Source: Candidatus Fermentibacterota bacterium
GTDB taxonomy: Bacteria > JAFGKV01
Direction of reading: 5' to 3'
Assembly: GCA_030620115.1 (NCBI GenBank)
Contig: JAUXFG010000003.1
Coordinates: 1-56,865, forward strand
Length of the DNA stretch: 56,865 nt
The notes under the pieces are model-generated. The model was not told the origin of the DNA and did not search any database. It was given only the letters and a program-made list of their open reading frames with translations. The translations under genes and the position numbers were made by a program. Positions 10,478-48,864 of this stretch are shown in pieces. The number at the start of each line of letters is the position of its first letter. Position 1 is the stretch's first letter.

Positions 10478-11648
10478 GTCAAACCTCTCCCCCGACTCAC
10501 TCGATGGAGTATCTTGCCCTATGCCCCACGCCTGCAGATCGCCAACGCCACTGGCTCTCTGAATCCGGCCCCACCAACAAAGGCCAATGATACATTGCTT
10601 TGTGAGTGCAACTTCACCGTGTTCGGGATGCTCTCTATGTGATACCTCTAACCATCATACTAAGTTGATGAGAGACAGTCAAGCGTGGATGGATTGGCCA
10701 AGTGGCAGGAGTGATTCTAGCGTAGAGACAGATCCCTCTTCGAGATTCGACTGGACCCCTCGTATGTGAGGCCCAGAGCGCATTCGGTGGCAGATCATTG
10801 TAGCAGGACTCACCCTTCACCTCTGCAAGCTCAGATAGTGGTGGAATTGGCAGATCGAGGCACAGATCGTGGTGATCGACGCAAATAGCACAAGATCACC
10901 CAAGCATGGCATCCTCATGGACGGGATACTGAACGACAGTCAATCGCCGCCGATCTTCTCCTGGTCAGGGCATATTGCGAAGCGCGGGATGCATGAAGGA
11001 AGAATCGAGAGAATCGACATCCACCCATCGATTCTGGATACCATATGAATACCCTCAAAAATACACTCGACAAGTGCGATTCAAAGGACGAGTTCGCTTC
11101 CCTCCTTCAATGGGGCACTCCAGCGAGATCAGGTTTTCAGCCAGATCCGTGGTGCTGCGATTCGATGCGGGAGGTGGAAGCTATGGAGAAAGCCTTCAGG
11201 GAATACAAAGCTGTGTGATCTGATATCTGATCCTGCAGAACATGCAGACATGGCCTCAATTATGTATCAGACGCCTCATGCACTCGCGACCACACTGAAG
11301 GAGTTGGAGAACGGATTGATCAATCCCACATATCCTCCCACATTCACGAAGAATTCAGTCGCGCAAGAGGAGGGGATTGAATTCCAGACCGGGTTGAGAG
11401 CGTGCCGTCAGACTTCCCGAGCTCATTCGGCTTGACGGGGCCTTGCCTCTTCGATAGTCTGGGCAGGCAACGCCTGTCATGATGTGTCTTTCATGAGCCG
11501 GTAAAGGATCCCCCAGAGGATGAGGACTGGTTGCATGGGAGGCGCCGTCCTCATTGGCATGTGACGCACCGTACGAGACCGTGGTCAGGGACATCATGGC
11601 CTGATACCGGGTGTCATGCCGGGATCTTGGTATCCTTGCCGAGGGAAG

Positions 11649-13878: not shown

Positions 13879-16041
13879 CTACTCGTCCGTGAGGTACCCG
13901 AGGAGACGCAACTGCTCCGAGAGCCTCTCATCGAGCCTGCTGGCCTGCATATGGGAGAGAGAAAGCCTCCGAACCCAACTTTCAAGGGCCCCGCGTCCGG
14001 CACCGCATAAGACCTGATAGCCATCTGTCATATCATCGATCTCCCCGGTTCCGTACGCGTAAAGCTCCATTTGCGGTGCTACTCCATCGCACACCCTGAC
14101 CGGAGAGATATTCCATATCAACGAGAACTGGCCGTCGTCGATCCTTGCGATCTCTATGGCCCTCAGACTGAGATGAGCGATCCTGAGTGACCGTTCTTTC
14201 GGTCGCCACGCCGAAGCATCGTTTCCCTCAGCGACCCAGCGCAATAAGTCACCGATGTCTCTATGATCGAGCACAACGTTGCTTTTCCCACCACCTTGTC
14301 CGGGAATACGAGCAAGAAGGGGAACATCCAATTGCTCGGAGTAGAGAGTCGTCCCGTGGGAAAAACCGCCATGCTCCGCGAATTCCTCCCCGTGATCGCT
14401 AGTGAGCACCACGATGGTGCGATCCAACAGGCCGCGGACAGCGAGTGAATCCAAGAGGTGAGAGAAATCCGCATCCCAGCCCGCAATCTCGGCATCGTAG
14501 AGGGCCGAAGCACTTTGTACTTCCCAGCTTTTATACCTTCCCGGGCAGATCATGGACATCAACTCCGGGCCGGTCATTTCCGCTCTTCGAGGGATACCCT
14601 CAGGGTAGAGCTTCACAAGGAATTCCGGTCGTGGGGTGTAGGGAATGTGAGGATCGGTGGCATGGAGATACGCAAAGAAAGGTCTGGCCTTGTCAATCCT
14701 GTTGTCCACCCAATGCAAGAAGGACAGGTGGAGCGAATCAGCCGGGAAATGCACCTTTCGTCTCAGCTTTGACTCACGAAAGAGCATGTAATGATCCACA
14801 TTCCTGGCGAAACCCCATTGCCTCGAAATATGGGCATTGGTCGAGAGAAACGCCGTCTCATACCCCGCATCGGCAAAGGAATCCCAGACGAATCCGATAT
14901 CAGCGGCAAGGGAGTCATCGTCATCGAGAGCCCCGTGGCAAACTGGATCGAGGCCCGTGAGCAAGGTGGCTGTGGAAGCCTTGGTCCAGGAGGAAAGGCT
15001 CCGACAGTCATCCCAGACATCCCATTCGCGCAAGCTGCCCAACAGTCCGGGGGTAGTGGATCTCTCATAGCCGTAAATCTGCAATCGGTCTCGTCGAATA
15101 GTATCAATCAGATAGAGGATCACGTTGTAGGGCTTTTCCGTGGGCGCAAGGGGGCCGGTGGAGATGCTCTCGTGAGCAATCGAGTAATGAGGCACCTGTG
15201 CATCGATGAACGTGATCTCATCCCAAGTCGCCTCACCTCGTGGAGCAAGAATTTCAAAAGAGACAGCAATAAGGTCACGGCCGACATGACGATCGAGAGC
15301 AACCCGGAAGGGTCGGGGTCGCTCCGATAGCTCATGATCCCAGAGGATGTCGGGTTCCTCGCCGTCAACGCACATGGTGATGCGGCCGATGCCACCCACA
15401 CCGCTCACGGAGCCCCTGACGAAGGCATCTCTCCCGCGTTCGACATAGACCTCCACCCGACAGCCATCACCCATTATTAGTCGATTTTCCGCCACCCTCA
15501 ACGATACGAAAGAGAGGCATTCTTTGGGATCGGTTGATTGGATCCGAATCCTCCGGACGACCAAGCGACGAGGGGACGCATCGTCACTCGCATTCGGGTT
15601 CCAGCGAAACCTGATCCGATTCCTTCCCCTCATTATAGTATCCGAGGGCAGCGGGAATCGGATATGGCGCATTCCCCCTGGAAGGTCTCCTTCGAAAACA
15701 CACTCTTTGCCTGGTCCAAGAATCGCCAGATGCCCCCCAGGCATCGGGATCGTCAACTCAACATCAACCGTCTTGTCACAGCGCGAGACGCTATAGAGAT
15801 CTATGTCTGCATTTCTATGTTTCAATGCACGCCCGGAGTCGCCGGGTGCCAAGAATCCTTGAATGAAGAACGGATTGCCCCGCTTGTCGGAGGGAATGAT
15901 TTCGATGTCCTGTTCGATCGATGCAGTGTCCCATGACTCAACGAGAGTGAGATTGTGTTTGTTATCCCGACACCTCACCACCAAGATGATCAAGACAGAG
16001 CAGAGGACGATGCCTGCTTTCTTGATGAGCGATCCGGTCAC
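13879..16041 (-). CDS. sulfatase-fold (alkaline phosphatase superfamily) protein, paralog P3 of 11649-13838
   Basis: Collinear with P2 along its whole length: LYLIDTIRRDRL, SSWTKASTATLLTG, LTSDHGEEFAEHG, C-terminal LRLLGYLTDE. The ORF opens at 16239 but would overlap tex by 139 nt. The GTG at 16041 starts just before the anchor helix (VTGSLIKKAGIVLCSVLIILVVRCRD). The start is uncertain. Confidence 0.75.
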   Translation of the reverse strand: MTGSLIKKAGIVLCSVLIILVVRCRDNKHNLTLVESWDTASIEQDIEIIPSDKRGNPFFIQGFLAPGDSGRALKHRNADIDLYSVSRCDKTVDVELTIPMPGGHLAILGPGKECVFEGDLPGGMRHIRFPLPSDTIMRGRNRIRFRWNPNASDDASPRRLVVRRIRIQSTDPKECLSFVSLRVAENRLIMGDGCRVEVYVERGRDAFVRGSVSGVGGIGRITMCVDGEEPDILWDHELSERPRPFRVALDRHVGRDLIAVSFEILAPRGEATWDEITFIDAQVPHYSIAHESISTGPLAPTEKPYNVILYLIDTIRRDRLQIYGYERSTTPGLLGSLREWDVWDDCRSLSSWTKASTATLLTGLDPVCHGALDDDDSLAADIGFVWDSFADAGYETAFLSTNAHISRQWGFARNVDHYMLFRESKLRRKVHFPADSLHLSFLHWVDNRIDKARPFFAYLHATDPHIPYTPRPEFLVKLYPEGIPRRAEMTGPELMSMICPGRYKSWEVQSASALYDAEIAGWDADFSHLLDSLAVRGLLDRTIVVLTSDHGEEFAEHGGFSHGTTLYSEQLDVPLLARIPGQGGGKSNVVLDHRDIGDLLRWVAEGNDASAWRPKERSLRIAHLSLRAIEIARIDDGQFSLIWNISPVRVCDGVAPQMELYAYGTGEIDDMTDGYQVLCGAGRGALESWVRRLSLSHMQASRLDERLSEQLRLLGYLTDE

Positions 16042-16100
16042 GAGCAGCAGATCTTGGGCGCAGGAGCCCTGTGCCGCCCGAGAATCGGGATGGAAGGCAT

Positions 16101-18386
16101 CTATGTCTTCGTTCCCCCGAAGTGTGCGGCAAGGTCCTTGATTTTCTGGTCCAGATCGTCCTTTCTCCGTGTGGAAGAGTGATGTGACTTGCGCTTTCTG
16201 CGTCGCCCAGTAGGTGGTTTTGTGCTCACAGGAATACATTTTTTCCTGGAGAGAGAAATGCGGTGCCGCTTGAGATCCACGTCGAGTACTTCCACATCAA
16301 TGAGATCACCAACCTTCACCACATTGCCGGGATCCTCAACGAAACGATTATCTAGTTCCGAAACGTGCACGAGACCGTCTTGATGCACACCTATATCCAC
16401 AAATGCGCCAAATCGTGTGACATTGGTGACCTTTCCCTGGAGTTTCATGCCCTTCTCGAGATCTGCAATCTCGTTCACGTCCTCTCGAAAACGCGGCGCA
16501 GCAAACTCCGCGCGAGGATCCCGGCCGGGTTTGAGCAGCTCCGCCTTGATGTCCTGCAAGGTATGCTCGCCGACCTCCGGAACCTTGGCAGTGAAATGCT
16601 GAAGATCAATCTTCTCGACGAGTTTGTCGTTTCCCACGAGCTCCTTCACTGTGATACCCACCATCGTGGCCATCTGCTCGACGATGCCATACGATTCGGG
16701 GTGTACTCCCGAATTATCGAGTGGGTGGTCAGCGCCACGAATTCGAAGAAACCCTGCGCACTGCTGAAAGGTCTTTTCACCAAGACCTTTCACATCCAAC
16801 AAGTCCGAACGGCTCCTGAATGGACCGTGGCCTTCCCTATGTTGAATAACATTCCTTGCGATCCGGTCGGTGAGGCCCGATGTGTAACGCAGCAATGACC
16901 AGGACGAGGTGTTGAGTTCCACCCCAACTTTATTCACGCAAGACTCCACGGTTCGTCCGAGGCTCTCCTTCAGCTTCTTCTGGTCCACATCATGTTGATA
17001 CTGACCGACGCCCAATGATTTGGGATCGATCTTTACCAGCTCTGCCAACGGATCCTGCAGCCTTCGAGCAATACTCAAGGCGCCACGAATGGTCACGTCG
17101 AGGTCAGGATGCTCTTCACGAGCTATATCGGATGCTGAGTAGACCGAAGCACCAGTCTCATTCACCATCACGCTGAATGCCCCAAACGACGTGTCCTTCA
17201 AGGAATCATGCACAAAATAATCTGTTTCTCGGGAGGCCGTACCATTCCCCACGGCCACCGCCCTCACGGCATGCTTGGACAAAAGCGCATGCAATGTCTT
17301 GCTCGCACGCTTGGTATCCTTGCGGGGGGCCGTAGGGTAGATGGTTGCCGCTTCTAGGAATTTCCCCGTGCCATCAACCACCGCAACTTTGCATCCAGTA
17401 CGAAACCCCGGATCAATGCCCAGAACACATATGGAACCCGCCGGTGGTGAGAGAAGGAGATTCTGCAGGTTTTCCTCGAAGACCCGTATCGCTTCCTCAT
17501 CCGAATGCGATTTCAGATCCGCACGGATCTCGGTCTCGATGCTGGGCTTGAGGAGGCGGATGAATGAATCACCGATCGCATTCGCCAGGTGGGCGCCCCA
17601 TGGCGATGCAGGCTTCACCTGGTAGCGCTTCATTATCGATTGAATGGCTTCATCTTCCTCATCAAGTGCGATCTGGAATGCAAGCACATCCTCGTTCGCG
17701 CCGCGCCGTATTGCCAACATGCGATGCGAAGGAATCGTGGCCACGGGCTCGCTGAACCCATCGTACATGTCATACTTGGTCGGACCTTCAATGAGTTTCT
17801 TGGCACGCACCTTCCCCTTGGTCAATATCCTCCGGCGAAGATCCGCACGGATCATAGAATCCTCTGCCACAATCTCCGCGACGATATGCCTTGCCCCTTC
17901 CAGGGCAGACGCGACATCATCAATGCCTTTTTCGGGGTCCACATAACCCTGGGCGACCTCTTCGGGCATCCCCCCATCCGGGGTCTGTGCCAACACGGCC
18001 CTAGCCAGCGGCTCCAAGCCGCGTTCTCGGGCTATGGTAGCCTTGGTTCTCCTCTTTGGTTTGAACGGCAGGTACAAGTCCTCCAAGCTCGATTTCTCAT
18101 TGCATTCCATGATGCGGGCTTGGAGCTCATCGGTAAGATTGCCCTGGTCGCGTATGGTAGTCAGAACCGTTGATCTCCTCTCCACAAGCTCCACGTAGTA
18201 TCGATGCCGATCCTGGATTTGGAAGATCTGTTTGTCGTCAAGGTTGCCGGTGGTATCCTTCCTGTATCTGGCAATGAAGGGGACGGTGGCGCCCTCAGTA
18301 AGGAGGGCGATGGTTCGGGAGACCTGAGGAGGATTCGCCCCTGCCTCCGTCGCAATAAGCTCGAGAAACCTCTGTTCAAGTTCCAT
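16101..18386 (-). CDS. tex: Tex family transcription accessory protein (YqgF/HhH/S1 domains)
   Basis: N-terminus ...VSRTIALLTEGATVPFIARYRKDTTGNLDD, C-terminal S1 domain (GKVTNVTRFGAFVDIG) and a basic tail. 761 aa. AAGGAG precedes the ATG. Confidence 0.95.
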   Translation of the reverse strand: MELEQRFLELIATEAGANPPQVSRTIALLTEGATVPFIARYRKDTTGNLDDKQIFQIQDRHRYYVELVERRSTVLTTIRDQGNLTDELQARIMECNEKSSLEDLYLPFKPKRRTKATIARERGLEPLARAVLAQTPDGGMPEEVAQGYVDPEKGIDDVASALEGARHIVAEIVAEDSMIRADLRRRILTKGKVRAKKLIEGPTKYDMYDGFSEPVATIPSHRMLAIRRGANEDVLAFQIALDEEDEAIQSIMKRYQVKPASPWGAHLANAIGDSFIRLLKPSIETEIRADLKSHSDEEAIRVFEENLQNLLLSPPAGSICVLGIDPGFRTGCKVAVVDGTGKFLEAATIYPTAPRKDTKRASKTLHALLSKHAVRAVAVGNGTASRETDYFVHDSLKDTSFGAFSVMVNETGASVYSASDIAREEHPDLDVTIRGALSIARRLQDPLAELVKIDPKSLGVGQYQHDVDQKKLKESLGRTVESCVNKVGVELNTSSWSLLRYTSGLTDRIARNVIQHREGHGPFRSRSDLLDVKGLGEKTFQQCAGFLRIRGADHPLDNSGVHPESYGIVEQMATMVGITVKELVGNDKLVEKIDLQHFTAKVPEVGEHTLQDIKAELLKPGRDPRAEFAAPRFREDVNEIADLEKGMKLQGKVTNVTRFGAFVDIGVHQDGLVHVSELDNRFVEDPGNVVKVGDLIDVEVLDVDLKRHRISLSRKKCIPVSTKPPTGRRRKRKSHHSSTRRKDDLDQKIKDLAAHFGGTKT

Positions 18387-18400
18387 ACTGCTCCTTGTTA

Positions 18401-18580
18401 GGGTTCGCGCAGAAATAACTTCGCATTATGACATCCCATATTCATCCCGCCGTCGGCGGGACTACGCCTCCCGTCTACGCCAAGGCTCCGCCGGGGCAAG
18501 CCGGTTTCGCTCCCTCGGGGAGGCCAATCCTGCGGCAAATCTGTGCGCCAAGACTGCGAACTCATTCCTGTGCGAACCCT
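18401..18580 (+). mobile_element. M2 MITE-like element, full copy E1 (17-bp terminal inverted repeats)
   Basis: Left end AGGGTTCGCGCAGAAAT. Right end ATTCCTGTGCGAACCCT, whose reverse complement is AGGGTTCGCACAGGAAT (15/17 match). No ORF. Flanked by TTA ... TTG. Confidence 0.7.
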
Positions 18581-18614
18581 TGGGGTCTGCCCCCTGCTTC
18601 TCAGACTGAGGCCC

Positions 18615-18780
18615 GGGGTCATCGCGAGCGATAGCGCGGCGATCTCGATGGGCCAATGAGATTGCTTCGTCGCTACCCTCCTCGCAATGACTGATGGTGG
18701 GGGGCACGATTCCGGGATCTCTCCATGGGACATTGTATTCCCATCGTGTGCCGTAGTGCTAGGCCGAGACCGTAAGAGCC
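18615..18780 (-). repeat. M3 palindromic-unit repeat, copy F1
   Basis: GGGGTCATCGCGAGCG...GAGATTGCTTCGTCGC...CTCGCAATGAC...GGCCGAGACCGTAA. Alignable with 43906-44127 and, as reverse complement, with 39350-39531. Confidence 0.75.
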
Positions 18781-18869
18781 AAGAATGAAACATCCGCTCC
18801 ATTCTTGGGTCTGCCCGCTGATTCTCACACTGAGGCGTGTTCGTCTCATAGGAAGCCCGTCTTGATGTC

Positions 18870-20267: not shown

Positions 20268-20340
20268 ATCTGACTCCCTTTCAAAAAAAGATCACGATTG
20301 TTTTGATGCGGGATAATCGCCTGGCATTGAACCAAACCTC

Positions 20341-20556
20341 AGGCTTCGCACAGGAATAATTCCACATTTTGACATCCCATCTTCAGCGCATCTAGAGCGC
20401 GGATCTCTCGCCAATCTTCTGCTTTCCCTCTTTGGAGTGCGGTAGCCCCGCGTACTGCGCCTCCCGTCTGCGCCAAGGCTTCGCCGAGGCAGGCCGGTGG
20501 GCACGGCATGCCGTGCCCCTACATGGGGAGCCCAATTCCAGGACAAATCTATGCGC
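20341..20556 (+). mobile_element. M2 element, copy E2 (3' end truncated against the prfB stop)
   Basis: AGGCTTCGCACAGGAATAATTCCACATTTTGACATCCCATCTTCAGCGCATCTAGAGCGCGGATCTCTCGCC.... The interior is nearly identical to copy E4. Confidence 0.65.
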
Positions 20557-28719: not shown

Positions 28720-28768
28720 GTTCGATGTTCGATGTTGAATGTTCGATGTTGAATGTTCGATGTTGAAC
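28720..28768. repeat. tandem heptamer tract (7 units in perfect phase)
   Basis: GTTCGAT GTTCGAT GTTGAAT GTTCGAT GTTGAAT GTTCGAT GTTGAAC. It starts 2 nt from the ATG (28716-28718) of the ASKHA gene on the other strand. Confidence 0.9.
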
Positions 28769-28893
28769 GTTTCCGCCCGCTGGTGGAACGATCCTGGGAG
28801 AAAACCTCTGCCTGAATGATCCCACCGGCTGACAGGCGGCCCCAATAACCCACATTTCTCACTCCCGCGACGAAAGCCGGTGAGAAGTGCGGC

Positions 28894-29580
28894 CTACATC
28901 TCTCTCCGAGGTTGGAGGCTGAGCATGATGAGCGTCCTCAAGATATCGGGCCAGACGGTGACAAGATTGAGCTTCGATGCGCCCCCCCGCCGTTCGTATT
29001 CATGACATCCGATTTCGCCAACCCTGCATCCATGGATGAGACATCGCATGACCATCTCTTGTTCGATGGCGAATCCCTTCTCCTTGAGACCCAGGCGCCT
29101 GGCGACGTCGGTCCTGATGGCCCGGAATCCATTCTGGCAATCGGTCAATCGTATACCCCACCGGTAGTTGATGGCGATCAAGATCATGTGCGAACCCATC
29201 ATGCGGACGAACCTGCCAAAACTCCCTGACCACTCGTCGCTGCCGCCTCTTATGCGCGAGCCGATGACCAGGTCAAGGTCCCGGTCTTGCAGTGCGGCAA
29301 CCAAGCGTGGTATGTCCCCGGGGTCGTGCGATCCATCGGCATCCATGAACACCATGGTATCTTCGCCCGCTTCCTCGATGGCAAGGCGCAAGCCTGCGCC
29401 CTTACCATCCCCCGAGTCCACAAGCACCCGGGCGCCGAAGGCGGTGGCGATCTCTTTGGAACCATCGCTGGATCCACCATCAACAACTATGGTCTCATCC
29501 GCATATGACATGGAAGACTCGAGCACTGCCTGAAGAGTTGCTGCCTCATTCTTGGTGGGAATGACAAGGGTTACACCCAT
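28894..29580 (-). CDS. family 2 glycosyltransferase (polyprenol-phosphate sugar synthase-like)
   Basis: VIPTKNEAATLQAVL, VVDGGSSDGS, FMDADGSHDP. 228 aa. Confidence 0.85.
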   Translation of the reverse strand: MGVTLVIPTKNEAATLQAVLESSMSYADETIVVDGGSSDGSKEIATAFGARVLVDSGDGKGAGLRLAIEEAGEDTMVFMDADGSHDPGDIPRLVAALQDRDLDLVIGSRIRGGSDEWSGSFGRFVRMMGSHMILIAINYRWGIRLTDCQNGFRAIRTDVARRLGLKEKGFAIEQEMVMRCLIHGCRVGEIGCHEYERRGGASKLNLVTVWPDILRTLIMLSLQPRREM

Positions 29581-31025: not shown

Positions 31026-33943
31026 GAAACCACCAATGAGACGCGATTTCGCCCGGATTCTTTGGCACAGTACAACGCCCTGTCGGCGTCAGCTAATAAT
31101 TCCTGCCAGGAATTGTGCACTCTGGGGTCAAGGCCGGCCACACCAACACTCACCGTGAATGATATGGTCTCCCCGCCTGGGTCCGCAAAGGGAGTCGATT
31201 CTACGCGGTCACGAAGTTTTTCCGCCACGAGAAGGCCGTTATTCTCCCCGGCGCCATAGAGTACATACATGAACTCATCACCACCGCTTCTGCACACGAG
31301 ATCGGATCTCCGCCGCAAACGACGAAGTATTTCGGCAAAATGCTTGAGGGCGGCATCACCGACAGCATGCCCCCACGTATCATTCAGTACCTTGAACTTG
31401 TCAATATCAATTGCCAGGGCAGTCATCGGGATGCCGCTCCTTTGTGCTCGTGCCACCACACCATCTACCTCGGCGTTGAAGCCTCTACGGTTGGGAAGCC
31501 CCGTCAATTCGTCGGTGAGGGATAGCTCTCTCACCTGGTCCAGAGCCTCTTCCAACTGGGTAGTCCGCGTTCGCACCAACCCCTCCAGCTCGATCCTTTT
31601 CCGCTCGAGCTGGCGCGTCCTAAGTTTTACGACCGCGGTGACAAGGCCAAAGGTAAGTAGGGTCACACCCACAAGAAACGGCGCTCTCAACCAGTATGGG
31701 GACCCAACATGCAGTACCACTGCTGCAGCCGGTCCCCAGGCTGACAGGTTGTTCCGCGCCGCTATCTCGAAACAATGGGTCCCACGTGGGAGATAAGAGT
31801 ACCGGATGTCATCCGTACGATGGGTCGTAATCCACGTATCGTCCACTTCGCTTAGGCGGTACTGGAACATCGCCTGATCGGGCCAGAGAAGTGATTGCTC
31901 TTCATATCGGATTCTGAGCACGTGATGTCCGTGGGGCAGAAGTCTGCCAGGTTTCCATAGGTCGCCATCCAGAGAAATCTGTTCGATCCGGATCTCCGGC
32001 CCGTCGACAAAGGCCCCCAATTGCCGCGTATCGATCCTGCTCACGCACCCAAAGAATCCACACCAAAGCCCTCCATCCTCGTCTAATACGAATGCGCGTG
32101 AGGTCGTGATCTCTTCACCTGCAAGGCCGACACGGTTGTCCAACATGGGGCCAAACGCGTCGCGCTCCAAATCAAGACATTGTACTCCATTGTCAGTACC
32201 GATCCAAAGATGGTTACCGTCCAAAACGAGGCCGGTCACCATCTCGTCTCCCAATCCATCGGGTTTCTTCCACGTCCGAACACGTTTCTTTTGATCAACG
32301 AGACAAAGGCCCGCCTCGGTGCCTATCCAGAGGCCCCGCTCTTCATCCACCAGAACCGTATTGATTCCCTGCGATGGTAACTGGTCGTTGAATTCAGACT
32401 GCCAGAGCGTATCGCCGTTGCTTGTCCATAAACCGAGCCCGGATGTGCCGACATGGACACGATCCCCGTCAGCCACCAGTGCATATACAGAGGCTTCCGG
32501 CATACCGGGAATCTCCGACCATACCCCATGGGCATACCGCACCACTCCAGTGGTTGTTCCAATGAGCGCTGAGTCTTTGTCTCGCACCAAGAGGCGTACA
32601 AGATAAAGGTCGCTCAGCGATGATTCATCGTGAAGAGGCTCCAGCTTCCCCTCGGCAGTGATCCTGAACATGCCGCCGTCACCAATCACGATGATGTCGT
32701 TCCCCATCCGCCCGATATCCCAAATCTCGCCCAGTCTGACATCATCACGATTCAGGGGGATCTCATCCAGTGCTCCGGTTGTCCTCCTGTGGAGCAAAAC
32801 ACTCCGATCAGTGGTTATGAAGACGCTGTCGCGCCCTTCGAGGTGCATGGCAAGAGGAGAAATAAGATTCTCATGTTTCAGATTCTCAACACTTGTGATG
32901 GAGACCTGCAGGAGACCCTCGCCTCCTGTTCCGATCCAAATTGATCCCGCTTGGTCAATCAGGAGACTAGTCATGGTTCGCTCCGTCACACCCACTGCAT
33001 AGGAAACCCATGATCCATCGTTGGCGAAATGCCAGAGTTTTCTACGTCCGATGCCCCAGAGTTCCCCATCCGGTGCACATGCAAGGTTCGTGAGGGATTC
33101 GATGCGCGGCGGCTCTCCCGGTTCGATAACAATTGTCGTGTCCCCCTGAGTCCTCATTACCCTCCCCCCGAGGAGATAGACGACTTCATCTTGAGGGAAA
33201 GGGCATATCGCGTAAATGAAGTTATGCTCTTCCTTCGCGGGACCCACATGGATTCTCTCGCCTGTGGAGCGATTCACACGCCAGAGACCTGAAAGCCGGG
33301 TTCCTACATACAAGACGCTGTCGCCAAGACTAGACATGACCAGCAATGCTTCATCCGGTGGAAAGGCAGGCATCACAGGAAGCTCAGCCACAGAATCCTC
33401 TCTACAGACGAATAGATTGTCCCATGTGCAGACAAGAACCTCTCCAGGCGCTCCCAATGCCAGGTTTCTGATGTCCATGCCCGCCATATTGATTTCTGAT
33501 TCGAGATGGTGAAAACCCACACTGTCACGAAAGGCGAGCCCACCATCAGTACCCAGCCAAAGGCGGCCCTTCTCATCCATGACCATAGCCATGATCGTGC
33601 TGCTGGGGAGCCCGTCAGCGGGACCGTATGTCCTTATCCTGCCGGCGGAAACGAGACTCAGCCCGGAAGGAGTTCCGACCCAGAGACCCTGGGAATGATC
33701 AGCGCACATGCAGAGCACCTCACGCGAGGCGAGGCCTTGGGCGGACAAGTATCGTCTCACGGGAAGCTCCATGGCCCAAGAGCATGCAGGCATGCCGAAG
33801 AAACTCTGGAGCAGAAGCACAACCAGAATCAGTCCTTTTTGTGCGGCTCGATAGATGATTTCGCGTTGCTCACTCAAGAATCGTGCTCCGCATTTGCTCA
33901 TATCCGTGATCTGAGCAAAAGGTGGATGGATGGGGTCGGGCAA
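31022..33943 (-). CDS. sensor diguanylate cyclase (beta-propeller Reg_prop repeats, Y_Y_Y-like domain, TM, GGDEF)
   Basis: Repeated LW(I/V)GT..GL propeller motifs, one TM (PFLVGVTLLTFGLVTAVV), a coiled coil, then RRSDLVCRSGGDEFMYVL (RxxD I-site plus GGDEF). Confidence 0.9.
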   Translation of the reverse strand: MPDPIHPPFAQITDMSKCGARFLSEQREIIYRAAQKGLILVVLLLQSFFGMPACSWAMELPVRRYLSAQGLASREVLCMCADHSQGLWVGTPSGLSLVSAGRIRTYGPADGLPSSTIMAMVMDEKGRLWLGTDGGLAFRDSVGFHHLESEINMAGMDIRNLALGAPGEVLVCTWDNLFVCREDSVAELPVMPAFPPDEALLVMSSLGDSVLYVGTRLSGLWRVNRSTGERIHVGPAKEEHNFIYAICPFPQDEVVYLLGGRVMRTQGDTTIVIEPGEPPRIESLTNLACAPDGELWGIGRRKLWHFANDGSWVSYAVGVTERTMTSLLIDQAGSIWIGTGGEGLLQVSITSVENLKHENLISPLAMHLEGRDSVFITTDRSVLLHRRTTGALDEIPLNRDDVRLGEIWDIGRMGNDIIVIGDGGMFRITAEGKLEPLHDESSLSDLYLVRLLVRDKDSALIGTTTGVVRYAHGVWSEIPGMPEASVYALVADGDRVHVGTSGLGLWTSNGDTLWQSEFNDQLPSQGINTVLVDEERGLWIGTEAGLCLVDQKKRVRTWKKPDGLGDEMVTGLVLDGNHLWIGTDNGVQCLDLERDAFGPMLDNRVGLAGEEITTSRAFVLDEDGGLWCGFFGCVSRIDTRQLGAFVDGPEIRIEQISLDGDLWKPGRLLPHGHHVLRIRYEEQSLLWPDQAMFQYRLSEVDDTWITTHRTDDIRYSYLPRGTHCFEIAARNNLSAWGPAAAVVLHVGSPYWLRAPFLVGVTLLTFGLVTAVVKLRTRQLERKRIELEGLVRTRTTQLEEALDQVRELSLTDELTGLPNRRGFNAEVDGVVARAQRSGIPMTALAIDIDKFKVLNDTWGHAVGDAALKHFAEILRRLRRRSDLVCRSGGDEFMYVLYGAGENNGLLVAEKLRDRVESTPFADPGGETISFTVSVGVAGLDPRVHNSWQELLADADRALYCAKESGRNRVSLVVS

Positions 33944-33974
33944 AAAAACAGCCTATATTCGGGAAAGCTGTCCA

Positions 33975-34193
33975 GCAAAGCTGCGCCTCAAACCGACGAG
34001 TGATGATGCCGTAGCGCATTGATTGAGGCGCAGCGATACTGGTCACTGGATACTGGATGGAACCCGGAGTCGTTGCGTTCTTCTTCCAGCATCCAGCATC
34101 CAGACACCAGCATCGCCTCGCAGCCAACCCACATATGTCGTTGCAAAACTTGACCCGTTTGTGAAGTTTCCAACCAATTGAAAACGACTAGTG
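33975..34193 (+). repeat. M1 element, copy B (hairpin + 4 heptamer units + 35-mer)
   Basis: Hairpin arms at 33980-33991 and 34023-34034. CCAGCAT CCAGCAT CCAGACA CCAGCAT at 34086-34113. 35-mer at 34140-34174. Confidence 0.85.
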
Positions 34194-35855: not shown

Positions 35856-35859
35856 CTTT

Positions 35860-36050
35860 AGGGTTCGCATCAGGAATAACTTCACATCTTGACATCCCAT
35901 CTTCATCGCATCTATTGGCCTCGCCTCCATCGCGAAATCCTCGATCCGCCAGCTAGCGGACCTCCGGCGGGCATCCGCCAGCTGGCGGACCAAACCCCTA
36001 CATGGGGAGACCAATTCTGCGGCAAATCTGTGCGTCAAGACTCCGAACCC
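35860..36050 (+). mobile_element. M2 element, copy E3
   Basis: AGGGTTCGCATCAGGAATAACTTCACATCTTGACATCCCATCTTCATCGC ... GGCAAATCTGTGCGTCAAGACTCCGAACCC. Flanked by TTA on both sides. The right TIR is shortened, apparently by a deletion between GCGAAC repeats. Confidence 0.7.
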
Positions 36051-36065
36051 TTACCATCCAATTGC

Positions 36066-36129
36066 CAACGTCGAACATCGAAGTGGGGCTCTTCCTTCGA
36101 CGTTGGATGTTGGATGTTCGGCGTTTCTC
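36066..36129. repeat. inverted pair of heptamer tracts (GTTGGAT/GTTCGAC type) forming a 10-bp hairpin
   Basis: CAACGTCGAA (36066-36075) pairs with TTCGACGTTG (36096-36105). The right arm continues CTTCGAC GTTGGAT GTTGGAT GTTCGGC GTTTCTC (36095-36129). The tract lies 58 nt upstream of the ligase ATG. Confidence 0.8.
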
Positions 36130-36186: not shown

Positions 36187-37617
36187 ATGAATGAGACCAC
36201 CTCTGTCATAGAAAGAGCGCCCCAGAATCCGCCTCTGGCCCATCCTCGCCCGGTTGGGCTTGTAATGGGTATCCTGGCCTCGGTAATTGCCGGGTTGCTG
36301 GTAACCAGGGTGGGCCCTCGAGCACTGCTCCTGATCCCCGTGCTCCTGATCGGTTGGCGAGTGATTCACAATCCCATATGGGCTCTGTCTTTGTATCTCG
36401 TGAGCGTGCCACTCTCCACCGCATCCGAAGCGCTTGTCGGCATCAGCATCACAAAGCTCGTCTTCGTGGTGCTTGTTCTCTCCTGGCTACTTGGCGCAAA
36501 GGGTCGCTTGCGGGCAAGAGAGACGGACATCCCGTTGTGGGGAGCCCTTTTTGTGGTGGTCTGTTTTGCGGCAAGCATCGTGAGCAAAGCGACGCTCCCT
36601 GGTCTTGCAAACACCGCACGCCTGGGTGGCTATGTGCTTCTTGTGATCATTTCGGCGGACCTTCTTCCTCGGCCTGGCGCACTCAAGAAGAGTCTCTACG
36701 CCATCTTGGTCCCTTCCCTTCCCTTTGTGATTCTGGGAATCTATCAGTTTGTCACTCATGGAACCATACTGGGCCTCGGACTCCACAGAGAGACAGGGGA
36801 TTTCGTGGTATGGAAGGGATTTGTCCAGGCCAGTGGTGTATTCGACCATCCCAATGTGTTTGCCACCTACCTGCTCGTGTATCTTTGTCTTGCCACGGGT
36901 TTAGGACTTCAGGCCGAGCGCTTGCGGGATCGCCTATTCTTTTTCGGCCTGGCGAGTCTGTCCTTCGGGGGCCTCCTTGTCACTTTTAGCCGCTCAGGTT
37001 GGGTCGGGCTCATGGCCTCGGCCGGTGCGTTTGTCCTGATCTATCCGCGATTCCTCAAGGCGGCTTTGGTATTGCTGCTGATTTTGGTTCTGCTCGTTCT
37101 CGTGCTCCCCGAAAAACAGGCAGAAGGTCTGACCAAACGAACCAGGCCTGAGATGGATGACTCCATGAGAGCCAGGGTTGGCGCTTACAAGTCGGCATGG
37201 AGGATGTTTGTCGACCACCCGCTTCTTGGTGTGGGGCTCGGGAGTTTCAATCGTCGATTCCTGGAGTACAAGGCGCCAGATGCCCGATTCCCCAAGAACT
37301 ATATCAGGGGCAGCGCCAAGGGCATGGAAGCCCATAGTACCTACTTGCAGCTCCTTGCCGAAACAGGCATACTGGGGCTTGCGGCATTCTTTGCGCTCAA
37401 CTTCAGTGTGGCATTTCAGCTAGTTCGGCTTCTCCGGCGCCACAGGGATGGTTTTGCCCGGGGCCTCGCCATAGGACTGGCAGCAGCGTTTGTGGGCCTT
37501 GTGGTCCAGAATGCCTTCAATAGTCAGGAGTACATCAAGGCTTTCTGGGTCGTCATCGCCCTCATCGCCGGGCTCAGCCAATGGGAGCCTCAACATGTCT
37601 CGGAATCTGGAATCTGA
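36187..37617 (+). CDS. O-antigen ligase / Wzy-type polymerase family membrane protein
   Basis: About 10-12 TM segments and the Wzy_C-like loop TFSRSGWVGLMASAGAF. Start set at ATG 36187 (MNETTSV). The ORF opens at TTG 36103, inside the heptamer tract. Confidence 0.8.
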   Translation: MNETTSVIERAPQNPPLAHPRPVGLVMGILASVIAGLLVTRVGPRALLLIPVLLIGWRVIHNPIWALSLYLVSVPLSTASEALVGISITKLVFVVLVLSWLLGAKGRLRARETDIPLWGALFVVVCFAASIVSKATLPGLANTARLGGYVLLVIISADLLPRPGALKKSLYAILVPSLPFVILGIYQFVTHGTILGLGLHRETGDFVVWKGFVQASGVFDHPNVFATYLLVYLCLATGLGLQAERLRDRLFFFGLASLSFGGLLVTFSRSGWVGLMASAGAFVLIYPRFLKAALVLLLILVLLVLVLPEKQAEGLTKRTRPEMDDSMRARVGAYKSAWRMFVDHPLLGVGLGSFNRRFLEYKAPDARFPKNYIRGSAKGMEAHSTYLQLLAETGILGLAAFFALNFSVAFQLVRLLRRHRDGFARGLAIGLAAAFVGLVVQNAFNSQEYIKAFWVVIALIAGLSQWEPQHVSESGI

Positions 37618-38335
37618 CAATCTGGATCTATGCACTATAGCGGATCGACTGGTGTGGGAGCTGAACCGCCTCACCTTCGCCCCGCCCATCACCCATGTGT
37701 ACAATCCACTGGAGTATGCCCTGCCATGCTATGAGCAATACGTATCTCTCTACGGGGCGCCGCCAAAGGAGGTTGTATTCCTCGGCATGAATCCCGGCCC
37801 CTGGGGAATGGCCCAGACCGGCATCCCGTTTGGAGAAGTTGAATTGGTGAGAGAATGGCTCGGTATCAAAGCACCGGTCTCAAGGCCCTCATTCGAACAC
37901 CTAAAGCGACCTATTCTTGGATTCTCATGTACCAGGCGGGAAGTTAGCGGAAAGCGCGTCTGGGGTTGGGCTCGCGACACATTCGGCACTGCGGAAGCCT
38001 TCTCCTCGAGGTTCTTCATCGCCAATTACTGCCCTCTTCTCTTCTTCGAGAAAGATGGGCGCAATCGGACGCCCGACCGGCTGGCCAAGCAGGAACGTGA
38101 ACTGCTTCTTGCCGTATGCGATGCCGCTCTCTTGCATACCATAGAATATCTCGCACCACGGCATGTGATTGCCTTCGGACGATTCGCCCATGGCCAGGCG
38201 ACACGGGCGCTGACAGGGTTTCCTGTCATGGTTTCGTCAGTTCCCCATCCGAGTCCCGCAAATCCTATAGCCAATAGGGGTTGGTCATCACTTCTCGACT
38301 CTCATCTGAAGGAGCTTGGTATCAGCACCGACTGA
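37595..38335 (+). CDS. SMUG1-type (family 3) uracil-DNA glycosylase
   Basis: FLGMNPGPWGMAQTGIPFGE (motif 1) and VPHPSPANP (motif 2). ATG 37595 overlaps the ligase 3' end by 23 nt. Confidence 0.85.
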   Translation: MSRNLESDNLDLCTIADRLVWELNRLTFAPPITHVYNPLEYALPCYEQYVSLYGAPPKEVVFLGMNPGPWGMAQTGIPFGEVELVREWLGIKAPVSRPSFEHLKRPILGFSCTRREVSGKRVWGWARDTFGTAEAFSSRFFIANYCPLLFFEKDGRNRTPDRLAKQERELLLAVCDAALLHTIEYLAPRHVIAFGRFAHGQATRALTGFPVMVSSVPHPSPANPIANRGWSSLLDSHLKELGISTD

Positions 38336-38556: not shown

Positions 38557-38590
38557 AACCTTGAACCTCCGAACCTTGAACCTCCGAACG
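38557..38590. repeat. 15-nt direct repeat x2 (GAACC 7/8-nt periodicity)
   Basis: AACCTTGAACCTCCG at 38557-38571 and again at 38572-38586, then AACG. GTTCGAT sits just upstream at 38527-38533. Confidence 0.85.
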
Positions 38591-39280: not shown

Positions 39281-39349
39281 CTATCTTCGAGTCTTCCCCT
39301 CGCGACTTCAGCCGTTCCACCCCCCTGGGTGTCTCATTCTCTCCTCCTG

Positions 39350-39700
39350 CAGTCTCGGCCCAGCGCTATGGCTCAAGATAGGAATACAGGATCCCGTAGA
39401 GAGATTCCGGAACCGGAGCACCACCCTCGGTCATTGCGAGGAGCCCTTCGACAAGCTCAGGATAGAGTCCGTGACGAAGCAATCTCATGCTCTCAACTGA
39501 GATCGCCGCGCTACCGCTCGCGATGACCCCCGGCTCCACCCCCAGTCATTGCGAGGAGGGTAACGACGAAGCAATCTCATCCGCTTCATTGAGATCGCCG
39601 CGCGGAGTTTATGCTGCCTCCGGCCCGTAGGGCCTACGCCCCGGAGGGAGCGAAGTCGAAGTGCTCGCGATGACTCCCGAGCCTCAGTCATTGCGAGGGC
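39350..39700 (+). repeat. M3 palindromic-unit cluster (copy F3 plus a second variant unit)
   Basis: CAGTCTCGGCCCAGCGCTATGGCTCAAGATAGGAATACAGGATCCCGTAGAGAGATTCCGGAACC...GTCATTGCGAGGAGC...GACGAAGCAATCTCAT...CTCGCGATGAC (39350-39531). A second GTCATTGCGAGG...CTCGCGATGAC unit carries the CTCCGGCCCGTAGGGCCTACGCCCCGGAG palindrome. Confidence 0.8.
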
Positions 39701-42303: not shown

Positions 42304-43567
42304 CGTGTCGTCAACGGATTTGAGTTCATATCTGCCGCAGAAAGGCCTTTCTCGAAATCTCGGCCTCCTTCTTTCCCTCATGATTGCTTTCCCCACATAC
42401 GCGGGGGCCATGGAAGAGACGTCATATCCAGCCGAGACGGTCACCGGCGGTGCAACGTGGATCCACAACCCCGCCCTATTGGGTTCGGATACAGATGGGC
42501 TATGGTCACTCCAGGTAATCGGAGCCAAAGCGTCACTCTCAAATAACTTGCTGAATCTGGATCTCTACGAAAAATACAATGGCAGATTTCTTTCCGAGGA
42601 GGACAAGGAAGATATCCTTGATAGAATCCCGGGGGATCAGGCAAAACTGGCCGTCCACGCTGGAGCGGAGGCACTGAGTTTCCGGTATGGTAGCTTTGGG
42701 TTTCAGACACGGAGCTTTGCAGGGGCTAACGGCGCCATGGATAAGGATTTCGTCGATCTCCTCTTCTTTGGGAACGAACTGGATCGACGATATGAGCTGC
42801 TCAATTCCGGTAGCGGCTTGGCCTACACATCGTTCGGTCCATCATATGGAAGACGCGCTGGAGAACTAGTCGATTGGAATGTGTCCTTGGGCGGAACTGT
42901 TCGCTACGTGATCGCATGGATGGGTGGCCAGGTAGTGGAGAGTCGCGGCGAGACCGTTACCCGAGTAGATGGCATCAGCGGGTGGGGAGAGACTGTCGTT
43001 CGCTACTCTGAGGGCACCGGCAGTGGTTTGGCTTTGGATCTCGGAATGTGGGCAATGAAGGAGAACTGGGAGCTGCAGCTATCACTGATTGACTTGGGCC
43101 CATCGATTTCATGGTCAAAGGGAAAAGAGAAGTGGTTCACCTTCGAATTCAAGGATTGGACCTTCGAAGAAGAGACCGAACAAGACGGCCATGCATACAC
43201 AAAAGAAGACTCCACCGTTGAAATCGCATCGTGGACAAGCCCCCTGCCTACCAGGATGCGGACATTGGTCGCGTACCATACCGACTGGGGTCAGATACAC
43301 CTTCTCTGGCTGCAGGGACTTCGAACCCGGGCAGGCGTGACTCGCACCCCTCGTTTCCAGGCCGGGACCGAATGGCGCGCGCAACCTTGGCTGCGGCCGA
43401 AATTCGCTCTACAGATCGGCAGCCCCGAGGGGATGGGGATTGCTTTCGGGCTCGGACTCGATGTCGGAGTCTTTCACGGGGATTTCTCCATCCTAGGCTT
43501 TAGGGTTCCTCCGTCCCGAAGCAAAAGCCTCGGCTTCGGCTTCAACCTCGCTTTTGGTTCGATCTAG
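42296..43567 (+). CDS. hypothetical, putative outer-membrane beta-barrel protein
   Basis: Signal LLLSLMIAFPTYAGA. Alternating-hydrophobic strands throughout (GLALDLGMWAM, WELQLSLIDLG, GIAFGLGLDVGVF, LGFGFNLAFG). Confidence 0.5.
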   Translation: MISVSSTDLSSYLPQKGLSRNLGLLLSLMIAFPTYAGAMEETSYPAETVTGGATWIHNPALLGSDTDGLWSLQVIGAKASLSNNLLNLDLYEKYNGRFLSEEDKEDILDRIPGDQAKLAVHAGAEALSFRYGSFGFQTRSFAGANGAMDKDFVDLLFFGNELDRRYELLNSGSGLAYTSFGPSYGRRAGELVDWNVSLGGTVRYVIAWMGGQVVESRGETVTRVDGISGWGETVVRYSEGTGSGLALDLGMWAMKENWELQLSLIDLGPSISWSKGKEKWFTFEFKDWTFEEETEQDGHAYTKEDSTVEIASWTSPLPTRMRTLVAYHTDWGQIHLLWLQGLRTRAGVTRTPRFQAGTEWRAQPWLRPKFALQIGSPEGMGIAFGLGLDVGVFHGDFSILGFRVPPSRSKSLGFGFNLAFGSI

Positions 43568-43756
43568 CCCGGACTTCTCACCGGCTTTCGAAAGCGAAGC
43601 GGCCGAGATGGTTCTGAATGCGAGGCTTGCGACGGAGGACCCCGCAGGCGTATCCGCTGCGATACGTCGAGGAGGCCGACGGAGCGTAACGAAGCCCCGC
43701 GTCGGACGCGGGATGCCATATCGGCCACTGCAGCCGAAAGTTGGTAAGAAATCCGG

Positions 43757-43896
43757 GCTAACCGTCCTCAATAGGTTGGAAACTTCACAAACGAGTCAAG
43801 TTTTGCAACGACGTTTGCGGGTTAGCTGCGAGGTGATGCTGGTTGGCAGAGCAGAGAATCCGACATCCAGAGACCAGGATCCAGTATCGCTGCGCC
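43757..43896 (-). repeat. M1 element, copy C (35-mer end present, hairpin missing)
   Basis: Reverse complement of the 35-mer at 43775-43809, followed by GTTAGCTGCGAGGTGATGCTGG. Similarity ends at ...TATCGCTGCGCC. Confidence 0.8.
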
Positions 43897-43905
43897 CGGA
43901 CTTCT

Positions 43906-44127
43906 GGGGGGTCATCGCGAGCGAAAGCGCGGCGATCTCAATGGGCAGATGAGATTGCTTCGTCGCGGGCTTTATCCTGCCTCCGGCCTGTAGGGCCTAC
44001 GCCCCGGAGGGAGCTTGTCGAAGGGCTCCTCGCAATGACTAAGGGTGGGGCTACGGTTCCGGAATCTCTCTACGGGATTCCGTATTCCTATCTTGAGCCG
44101 TAGTGTTGGGCCGAGACTGTAAATACC
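43906..44127 (-). repeat. M3 palindromic-unit repeat, copy F2 (with inserted CTCCGGCC..GGAG palindrome)
   Basis: Collinear with 18615-18780 plus a ~60-nt insert. It supplies the last ~24 codons and the stop of the 967-aa ORF. Confidence 0.8.
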
Positions 44128-47624: not shown

Positions 47625-47780
47625 CGTGTCACCTCCTTGTAATGGATACAAATTCCCATTCTCTCACCCTGACCAAATCTACGCGCAGGTCGTATAGGCC
47701 GCAACTCCTGCGAAAACCGCCCCCCACGGACAACTCCTGGGTCGCACTACCTCGTCGGGGAGGGAAAGTGGCTTTGCCAA

Positions 47781-47943
47781 ATATGCGGGTTAGCTGCGAG
47801 GCGATGCTGGATGCTGGTTGCTTGATGCTGGAAGGAGAACGGAACGACTCCGGGTCCCATCCAGTATCCAGTGACCAGTATCGCTGCGCCTCAATCAATG
47901 CGCCACCGCATCATCACTCGTCGGTTTGAGGCGCAGCTTCGCT
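47781..47943 (-). repeat. M1 element, copy D (hairpin + 4 heptamer units, 35-mer missing)
   Basis: GGGTTAGCTGCGAGGCG, then ATGCTGG ATGCTGG TTGCTTG ATGCTGG (47804-47831), then a core and hairpin identical to copies A and B. Confidence 0.85.
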
Positions 47944-47994
47944 AGTGAATCCATAGATTTACTAGCGATTTATCAGGTGACGATTCTTGTGCTC

Positions 47995-48175
47995 AGGGTT
48001 CGCGCAGAAATACCTTCACATCTTGACATCCCATCCTTACCCCAATCTAGAACGCGGATCTCTCGCCAATCTTCTACTTTCCCTCTTTGGAATGCGGTAG
48101 CCCCGCGTACTGCGCGGGGCTACCGCTTTTCCCGAGCAAGCCATGCTTGTGTAGTCCCGCGTACTGCGCGGGATT
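47995..48175 (+). mobile_element. M2 element, copy E4 (5' half), with REP-like hairpins
   Basis: AGGGTTCGCGCAGAAATACCTTCACATCTTGACATCCCAT..., then a 14-bp hairpin GCGGTAGCCCCGCG/CGCGGGGCTACCGC (48094-48126) followed by TTTT. A second hairpin, TCCCGCG-TACT-GCGCGGGA, follows. Confidence 0.7.
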
Positions 48176-48864
48176 GCTCATCGAACAGTCTGTAATGTGG
48201 ACTTATTCTTGCGCGAGTCCTTACGCAATACAGCCCACAACACACAATGGTCAACCCACGAGCCACTGCCCATCGACACGTTGCAGCGTTTTGCATCGTG
48301 GCCGACGCCTGGCACAAAATGTTACAGGAGATGTCACGGAATGCGATAGGCATAGTCGCCGGAGGGTTCGAAAAGGCTACTCCTTCTTTGTAGTGGGCCA
48401 CCATTTCTGGCCCCCATGGTCGGATAGATGAGATCCGGAAGGCTGTGGACTGATTGTCAAGATTGGGCGCGTGCGTCCAGAGCAGGACTGCTTGATTTGA
48501 TAGGCACGCCAACGACTTAGCGGCATTCATTCCAAGATCCCCTCCATTCGCTTAGCGGCCTCACAGTATCGCCACATCATCAGATGAGCCCCATTCTATA
48601 GTGATCGACAGGGTGTTGGGCCAAGAACGCCTTGCACTTTGGCATGGATAATGCGATCTTCGTATGGTGTGCCGCGTGGAGCTATCGCTCAGCAGGTTGG
48701 GATTCTGCGATTTTCAATTGCCAGTCCCCTGGCCACCATTATCAGCAGAACGGCCTTCACGAGCACAGCGGCATGATTGGAATCAGATGCGTGGAAAAGA
48801 CATCTGTTGGAATGACCCTTGATCGCGGAATCGCAAACTCTCGAGAAATGGAGGAGGAGAAGAA

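Follow-up and report, generated by a model that had tools for sequence, protein, structure and literature searches.

Contig JAUXFG010000003.1 of a Candidatus Fermentibacterota bacterium (assembly GCA_030620115.1) carries four copies of a non-coding repeat of about 210 nt with three hairpins, here called M1. Copies A and B lie on the plus strand, C and D on the minus strand. The window is the entire contig of 56,865 nt (57 kb). It is ordinary chromosome, encoding PolA, a release factor, CoaE, Tex, a beta-CASP nuclease, sulfatases and several sensor kinases, along with a sugar-modification and Wzz/Wzy polysaccharide cluster. PolA has at most 49% identity to that of any of 185,579 species representatives (GTDB), and its nearest relatives in a large collection are 61-65% identical; one of these carries the label Candidatus Fermentibacteria, which is a class of the FCB group. 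Judging by PolA, the contig is from a poorly sampled lineage. Exact look-ups of the window's DegT and AIM24 proteins found no record. A Pfam scan of 44 open reading frames (ORFs), every large ORF of the contig among them, found no cas, tnpB, iscB, HUH, RAYT, tnpA or other transposase gene, and gene context and Pfam together reveal no tnpB or iscB gene or remnant adjoining any M1 copy.

The copies were called by direct reading, multiple alignment and pattern searches, and an nhmmer search of the window with a profile of the copies returned these four loci and nothing else, further partial copies included. Their number is far beyond chance. The window has three exact occurrences of the 35-mer that forms the third hairpin, where shuffles give an expectation of 0.00; the 12-nt arm of hairpin 1 is present six times (0.32 expected) and the linker CTCGCAGCYAACCC four times (0.37 expected). 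Pairwise identity among copies is 80-95%. They occupy four different gene contexts on both strands, and each is intergenic or overlaps just the last codons of an ORF. The M1 family is intergenic and sharp-ended. That it is non-coding, as the initial annotation had it, is borne out by this placement, by a 7-nt indel in copy A, and by the pseudo-peptides of M1's open reverse frame, which have no match among 5.8 billion proteins. The same annotation had placed four copies at these sites, had noted that the number of heptamer units varies between copies (one versus four, in the alignment), and had described the 35-mer as solitary with conserved flanks, which holds for three copies 9.6-33 kb apart. 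The sites stand, and the limits are revised to 666-873 for A, 33974-34193 for B and 47739-47943 for D.

From left to right, the unit consists of a 6-nt leader, hairpin 1, hairpin 2, a 14-nt linker, hairpin 3 (the 35-mer) and a 19-nt tail. Hairpin 1 is a perfect 12-bp GC-rich stem (arms GCTGCGCCTCAA and TTGAGGCGCAGC) with a 31-nt loop. On folding, the 'core' GATACTGGTCACTGGATACTGGATG pairs with the (CCAGCAT)n tract; the two had been taken for separate modules and are instead the two arms of hairpin 2, each an array of the heptamer CTGGATR in inverted orientation. Since a rotated (CCAGCAT)n reads (CTGGATG)n on the other strand, hairpin 2 amounts to two head-to-head CTGGATR microsatellites. Such a microsatellite, acting as a hairpin within a mobile unit, is unusual, and its unit number would drift by slippage. 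Hairpin 3 is an imperfect palindrome (GTTGcAAAACTT...AAGTTTcCAAC; arms GTTGCAAAACTT and AAGTTTCCAAC) and has no sequence similarity to hairpin 1. Both are subterminal: between the left end and hairpin 1 there are 6-8 nt, and between hairpin 3 and the right end 19 nt. The left end, CAAGCGAAGCTG, and the right end, GACGGCTAGTG, are non-complementary, and comparison of the two ends reveals no terminal inverted repeats.

In all four copies, the better-folding strand is the reverse one, opposite to the orientation in which the element was initially annotated. Fold energies of the reverse versus the forward strand are -72.1 versus -67.2 kcal/mol for A, -87.6 versus -72.4 for B, -44.0 versus -39.9 for C and -79.5 versus -63.1 for D. 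Hairpin 2 accounts for all of the difference: on the reverse strand, its recurring A.C mismatch turns into G.U (G.T in DNA), and RNA and DNA parameters agree on it. Hairpin 2 itself has about -18 kcal/mol in A and C, compared with about -45 to -48 for the long form; in B, the values range from -38 to -48. Because the paired positions are invariant among the four copies, there is no covariation. The proposal that the modules can separate fits less well than differential decay and truncation of copies: hairpin 2 is collapsed in A, C is truncated and the 35-mer of D has diverged, so independent decay is the better name. After arrival, copies decay independently by internal deletion, heptamer loss, truncation and abutment with other repeats.

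The state of the individual copies illustrates this variety. M1-B (33974-34193, plus strand) is the most complete copy and the only complete one, with hairpin 1 at 33980-34034, hairpin 2 at 34035-34116, the linker at 34117-34130, the 35-mer at 34140-34174 and the tail at 34175-34193; in its hairpin 2, 3.5 CTGGNNN units pair with four CCAGNNN units. A GGDEF gene (start about 33901, minus strand) and a Wzz gene (start about 34305, plus strand) diverge from the 401-nt spacer in which it lies. M1-A (666-873, plus strand) has both termini complete, with limits set by the empty site described below. It comprises hairpin 1 at 674-728, a degenerate hairpin 2 at about 729-796, the linker at 797-810, the 35-mer at 820-854 and the tail at 855-873. 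Its hairpin 2 has collapsed, with an extra 7-nt unit in the 5' arm and a single CCAGCAT in the 3' arm. M1-A also gives the methyltransferase ORF at 23-700 its last 11 codons and its stop codon (698-700, in the hairpin-1 loop).

M1-C (43757-43896, minus strand) has lost its 5' part: the break lies within hairpin 1, in the 3' arm, and a different repeat family adjoins it there. The copy keeps a shortened hairpin 2, the linker at 43819-43832, the 35-mer at 43775-43809 and the tail. The earlier statement that this copy lacks the hairpin holds insofar as most of hairpin 1 is gone; GGCGCAGC of the 3' arm remains, and the truncation falls at the repeat junction. The convergent spacer around it, 43568-44050, is fully tiled by R5 (43564-43695), R4 (43721-43760), M1-C and R3 (43907-44122), a BIME-like cluster of four repeat families. 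M1-D (minus strand; profile match 47943-47739) has hairpin 1 at 47883-47937, hairpin 2 at 47801-47882 with four units in the 3' arm, and the linker at 47787-47800. It had been said to lack the 35-mer; in fact, a decayed version, 21 nt shorter and strongly diverged, is present at about 47746-47786, and both termini are kept, the right end being AGTGCGA (..GACGAGGTAGTGCGA). M1-D stands upstream of a two-gene operon (47624 to 44051, minus strand), in a gene-free region of 1.24 kb and 48 nt from a copy of R2. A 13-bp perfect palindrome (47939-47968) abuts its left end; the 3' arm of the palindrome takes in the first 4 nt of the element, and AUUUAU follows on the plus strand. Downstream of M1-D, at 47674-47704 on the minus strand, lies the sole strict Bacteroidetes-type promoter match in the window, TTG-N20-TAGATTTG, 50 nt upstream of the ATG of a 228-aa gene.

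The strongest evidence on the nature of M1 comes from an empty site. A relative of the methyltransferase beside M1-A (P0121, 83% identical) is encoded on a 3.5-kb contig in NCBI from a sister lineage (locus L089, RCNG010017148.1, GCA_003704855.1). Positions 1-665 of the window align with L089 753-1417 at 89.9% DNA identity, an alignment that ends precisely where M1-A begins. The filled junction in the window reads ..ATTGCAAAAAAAC, followed by the 208 nt of M1-A (666-873) and then CGATGACACAATACTCTCC..; the empty junction in L089 reads ..ATTGCAAGAAAAC, followed by TCGGCC and then CAATGACACAAGACTCTTC.. The right flank in L089, CAATGACACAAGACTCTTC, agrees with window positions 874-892 at 16 of 19 positions, a score reached by none of 300 shuffles. 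The breakpoints defined by the empty site fall within 2 nt of the limits of homology among the M1 copies. M1 thus displays a filled/empty polymorphism with breakpoints at the repeat's own ends, the mark of a mobile interspersed repeat. There is no target duplication at M1-A, where the filled site reads ..AAAAAC/M1/CGATGAC and the empty site ..GAAAAC/TCGGCC/CAATGAC. Two more assemblies (L090 and L091) have an identical empty site; being 99.7-99.9% identical to L089, they are the same sister lineage resampled. Besides GCA_003704855.1, that lineage is represented by the ENA assemblies ERZ25083855 and ERZ23877654. M1 was found on none of its three short contigs, and cluster look-ups yielded no sister-lineage contig usable for the genes flanking B, C and D.

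The empty site also bears on the host gene. Methyltransferase homologues stop at or shortly after ..IA(K/R/Q)K, which argues that M1-A replaced the natural tail and gave a new stop codon; from this comparison of sequences, the M1-encoded tail is secondary. Synteny breaks again 19 nt right of M1-A (window 893, L089 1443), so the 3' end of the methyltransferase gene is a rearrangement junction. Beyond it comes a PAD_porph (agmatine-deiminase-like) gene in the sister lineage; in the window, about 760 nt with no convincing gene lead to the sugar-modification cluster. In addition, L089 31-161 shares the repeat R5 with window 43564-43695 at 88.6% identity, so the sister lineage is likewise repeat-rich.

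Directly left of M1-A, at 656-665 on the plus strand, stands GCAAAAAAAC. The same sequence occurs at 33940-33949 (plus strand), 24 nt left of M1-B, where its reverse strand forms a U7 run after a 9-bp hairpin (33946-33973). The window thus holds a second T7 run beside copy B, and not the one by copy A only that had been reported. The two occurrences compare with 0.08 expected, each lies left of an M1 copy, and the sequence is absent at D. We considered GCAAAAAAAC as a part of M1 and rejected this at A: there it is host sequence encoding the conserved Ala-Lys-Lys of the methyltransferase family C-terminus, and the sister lineage has GCAAGAAAAC at the equivalent position of its empty site, so the motif is outside the element. 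It is a possible insertion-site motif of M1, and insertion may prefer sites next to it.

In our judgement, M1 is probably a lineage-specific, non-coding, non-autonomous interspersed repeat of the class that includes REP/REPIN, BOX/BIME and the IS200/IS605-derived PATE, inserted or precisely lost as a discrete unit. The empty site in the 90%-identical sister lineage supports the mobile element that was one suggestion of the initial annotation, as do syntenic relatives without M1, the different decay of the copies and the embedding of M1 in mosaics with at least three other dispersed families. The mobilising enzyme would act in trans, its gene lying elsewhere in the genome. Because M1 has no inverted repeats and no target duplication, and because it has subterminal hairpins and a strand asymmetry in hairpin 2, we infer a single-strand 'peel-and-paste' process of the HUH type, by a RAYT or an IS200/IS605 TnpA-like enzyme. 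Effects on the host would be by-products: the new methyltransferase C-terminal tail and stop codon, and stable hairpins in 5' or 3' untranslated parts of surface-polysaccharide and secreted-protein genes.

Several points weigh against this proposal. None of the 44 ORFs encodes a transposase, RAYT, TnpA or TnpB. Hairpins 1 and 3 are unrelated, unlike the matched left- and right-end hairpins of IS200/IS605, and the GTAG head of REP is found in none of the three hairpins of M1. The strand asymmetry comes down to one recurring A.C/G.U position that is copied with the heptamer, and it therefore represents few independent events. The association with GCAAAAAAAC involves two copies, and at B a gap of 24 nt intervenes. 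The empty-site comparison covers one orthologous junction; the 6-nt filler in the sister lineage leaves this site imperfectly clean, and the polymorphism could formally reflect a deletion there instead of an insertion here. We also see a slight chance that M1 is the substrate of an undescribed single-strand mobilisation system in Fermentibacterota, in which hairpin 1 and the 35-mer would be the end-recognition structures for an HUH or RNA-guided enzyme with its gene elsewhere, the heptamers would be a length-variable spacer and the target would lie beside GCAAAAAAAC, or else that it is a self-mobilising small RNA (sRNA) gene on the reverse strand.

Among described repeats, the closest parallels are those just named. 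REP and REPIN sequences, moved by RAYT (Y1 HUH) transposases in, for example, Pseudomonas and Escherichia coli, are like M1 short, non-coding, hairpin-forming and intergenic; both lack terminal inverted repeats and target duplications, are dispersed over both strands, often in clusters mixed with other repeats, and presumably work in the form of single-stranded hairpins. M1, however, has about 210 nt compared with 20-40 nt for REP and about 50-110 nt for REPIN, and its three unrelated hairpins have no GTAG head. By description, the BOX elements of Streptococcus pneumoniae and the BIMEs of E. coli resemble M1 in having a conserved left part, an interior of variable unit number and a conserved right part, in their strong predicted structure and in their intergenic position within mosaics, near genes that they may affect. 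The variable part of M1 is a 7-nt microsatellite in hairpin arms, in contrast to the 45-nt boxB; no sequence similarity is known, and the host is of another phylum. With the IS200/IS605-derived PATE, M1 has in common the lack of inverted repeats and duplication, subterminal hairpins at both ends, a sharp filled/empty polymorphism and strand asymmetry, and perhaps a left-side sequence preference (GCAAAAAAAC). It differs from PATE in its unrelated end hairpins, in having no tnpA or tnpB remnant, no 3'-end homology and no match to an IS605-associated RNA in Rfam, and in the placing of the candidate target motif, which stands 24 nt from B and is missing at D.

Two other groups share less with M1. 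The cyanobacterial STRR are likewise intergenic tandem heptanucleotide arrays, and the CTGGTCA unit is one base away from the STRR2 unit, TTGGTCA; M1 differs from them in its two head-to-head arrays, which form a hairpin in a larger mobile unit, and its host is no cyanobacterium. Elsewhere in 1.54 Mb, the only CTGGATN arrays found were plain direct ones in the Olavius algarvensis Delta 3 symbiont, a deltaproteobacterium (L047, at 7268-7323, 13281-13315 and 13342-13362; CTGGATA, CTGGATT and CTGGATG, up to eight units). One pair of these arrays flanks a small GC hairpin, and none of the other 89 loci fetched has such arrays. Classical miniature inverted-repeat transposable elements (Correia/NEMIS, Nezha) are, like M1, small, non-autonomous and intergenic, can alter gene ends and show filled/empty polymorphism, but M1 has neither their terminal inverted repeats nor their target-site duplication. 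M1 is a member of no named family among those compared.

No relative of M1 came out of the searches beyond the window. Three loci of PolA relatives (L081, L082 and L088) keep the order Wzz, GGDEF/BrkB, GT2, RACo ... PolA, CoaE, release factor; at the position of M1-B, they have unrelated spacers called at 100-376 nt. Neither blastn nor nhmmer found M1 modules in 1.49 Mb of fetched loci, including the Wzz/GGDEF-BrkB spacer of the syntenic relatives. Patterns from the 5' part of the 35-mer (23-33 nt) have no matches in species-representative genomes, metagenome contigs or viral contigs, the linker pattern has none in metagenome contigs, and the hairpin-1 pattern has none in viral contigs; the species-representative genomes and the JGI metagenome contigs do not match the window itself either, so both seemingly lack the source genome. 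Copy B had no match in plasmids and phages in a distant-mode blastn search. Rfam 15, run on the whole window at the gathering threshold, gave no hits, and at E<=10 copies A and B returned only microRNA-precursor and long non-coding RNA noise far below threshold. The known RNA family and the neighbouring tnpB, iscB, cas12 or RAYT gene or array of clustered regularly interspaced short palindromic repeats (CRISPR), all considered at the outset as possible explanations, were therefore not found, the former in Rfam at either threshold and the latter on the contig by Pfam and Tandem Repeats Finder. Literature searches on repeats in the lineage, on heptanucleotide repeats and on the heptamer string brought up nothing relevant.

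One rival reading is that M1 is a multi-copy sRNA gene on a mobile unit, transcribed on the reverse strand from a start in or after the 35-mer, through hairpins 2 and 1, to a terminator-like stop beyond hairpin 1. The reverse strand is the more stable in all four copies, owing to hairpin 2, and four of five weak Rfam microRNA-precursor matches lie on it. Downstream of hairpin 1 on this strand, A has a U7 run 9 nt on, B a 9-bp hairpin leading into U7, and D a 13-bp perfect hairpin followed by AUUUAU. Measured against an intrinsic terminator (a GC-rich stem with a U tract within 0-2 nt), the sense strand has none, and the reverse strand has weak consensus matches at A and non-canonical hairpin-and-U arrangements at B and D. 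The U7 by A, however, is host coding sequence and older than the insertion, A and C no longer have the long hairpin 2, D is without the proposed promoter region, and C is without hairpin 1 and any terminator. No sigma-70-type promoter was found near the copies on either strand; scans for sigma-70 promoters and terminators gave nothing at any copy except weak matches at A. The reverse-strand 35-mer does fit a relaxed TTG-N19-nAnnTTTG pattern, but the sequences upstream of genes in four related loci lack the Bacteroidetes-type -7 motif and are enriched in TTGACN, so the match is probably meaningless and a Bacteroidetes-type promoter in the 35-mer was rejected. No Rfam family and no covariation among copies speak for a conserved RNA. 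The structured sRNA of the initial annotation thus keeps a better-folding strand and terminator-like features, and loses on the promoter, on hairpin 2 in A and C and on covariation; we consider such a gene unlikely.

TTGACN also bears on a different proposal, which sees M1 as a cis-regulatory cassette of surface or exopolysaccharide genes, with the 35-mer as a protein operator or the heptamer tract as a phase-variation switch: TTGACY is present in the sense-strand 35-mer, and the heptamer number differs among copies (one versus four). Yet no acceptable -10 element was found after TTGACY, and the 35-mer half-site GTTGSAAACTT occurs nowhere outside M1. Envelope genes adjoin all copies, with the sugar-modification cluster at A, Wzz/Wzy and the GGDEF cyclase at B, and an operon of two large non-cytoplasmic proteins at C and D, but most of the contig encodes envelope functions, so this association is expected by chance. 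Position and orientation are inconsistent: A covers the 3' end of a gene, C sits where two genes converge at their 3' ends, B precedes the Wzz start by 112 nt, and D precedes its gene by more than 110 nt and also lies upstream of the sole strict promoter-like match. Since orthologous genes of relatives do without M1 as well, a regulatory cassette seems very doubtful to us. Exceedingly improbable, in turn, is the reading of the 35-mer as a lone CRISPR repeat or as what remains of a guide-RNA scaffold (trans-activating CRISPR RNA or omega-RNA) left by, or still in use by, a Cas12-, TnpB- or IscB-type nuclease, although a type V (Cas12f-like) repeat had been the first impression. Its look is what favours this: 35 nt, palindromic, with a GTTG start and a CAAC end, and nearly invariant in three copies. 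But the contig has no repeat-spacer array (Tandem Repeats Finder gives no period of 50-80 nt), the Pfam-scanned ORFs hold no cas, tnpB, iscB or HUH gene, Rfam, also at E<=10, gave neither CRISPR-DR nor HEARO nor any other family apart from hairpin noise, and patterns from the 5' part of the 35-mer had no match in genome, metagenome and viral collections. The 35-mer is always internal to a larger inserted unit with conserved flanks, and its conservation is no higher than that of the rest of the element, as far as three copies can show. An integron attC-like site was rejected by inspection, the 35-mer being GTT...AAC and attC ...AAC...GTT...

M1 is one of several repeats of this contig. By self-comparison, dispersed repeats make up about 6% of the window, all intergenic, with at least three families besides M1, and the families abut one another. 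R2 is a dispersed intergenic family at 18398-18561, 20338-20555, 35858-36048 and 47992-48129. The last copy ends in a 12-bp perfect GTAG-headed GC palindrome (48091-48129), GGTAGCCCCGCG-TACT-GCGCGGGGCTACC, followed by CTTTTCCC; a second GTAG-headed hairpin about 20 nt beyond (about 48152-48175) makes a REP-like doublet, which hints that a RAYT-type system may exist in the genome. R3 (18611-18795, 39327-39675 and 43907-44122) is 185-350 nt long with internal direct and inverted sub-repeats, and one copy adjoins the truncated end of M1-C; R4 (43721-43760) and R5 (43564-43695) are smaller families. R5 is shared with the sister lineage at 86-95% identity, at a non-orthologous place (window 43564-43695 versus L089 31-161; window 28871-28900; window 35956-35992 versus L089 3365-3400). 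Several repeat families therefore predate the split between the lineages.

Heptanucleotide arrays recur outside M1. A (GATGTTC/GATGTTG)n array at 28720-28771 adjoins the likely ATG of a RACo-like gene (28719, minus strand), a hairpin at 36044-36118 with arms of GATGTTC/GATGTTG heptamers lies just upstream of the Wzy gene, and more 7-nt arrays are found at 37602-37626 and 38557-38589. A perfect 25-bp inverted repeat with a 6-nt loop (5639-5694; AGCTCCAATTACACAGTTCAGGGTC/GACCCTGAACTGTGTAATTGGAGCT) between convergent genes could be a bidirectional terminator or another element. Long stretches of 0.95-1.24 kb without a convincing gene (701-1651, 10478-11615 and 47625-48864) have ORFs without Pfam domains and no Rfam match. 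Two convergent sulfatase-domain paralogues, at 11616-13838 (plus strand) and 13879-16239 (minus strand), have 65-69% DNA identity (12581-12904 versus 15127-14804; 13212-13399 versus 14499-14312). A replication origin at the GC-skew minimum (about 48 kb, near M1-D) was rejected, as there is no DnaA-box cluster and the skew follows gene orientation.

The filled/empty comparison at M1-A documents small non-autonomous repeats, active or recently so, in a barely sampled candidate phylum (Fermentibacterota-like, FCB group). Such repeats remodel gene ends and intergenic regions, and in metagenome-assembled genomes of the lineage, repeats like M1 account for spurious ORF calls and for contig breaks. 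They also counsel caution, in that a solitary GTTG...CAAC palindrome need not be a CRISPR relic. The combination of no inverted repeats, no target duplication and an inverted-heptamer hairpin is unusual, and it could point to an HUH-type or other single-strand system.

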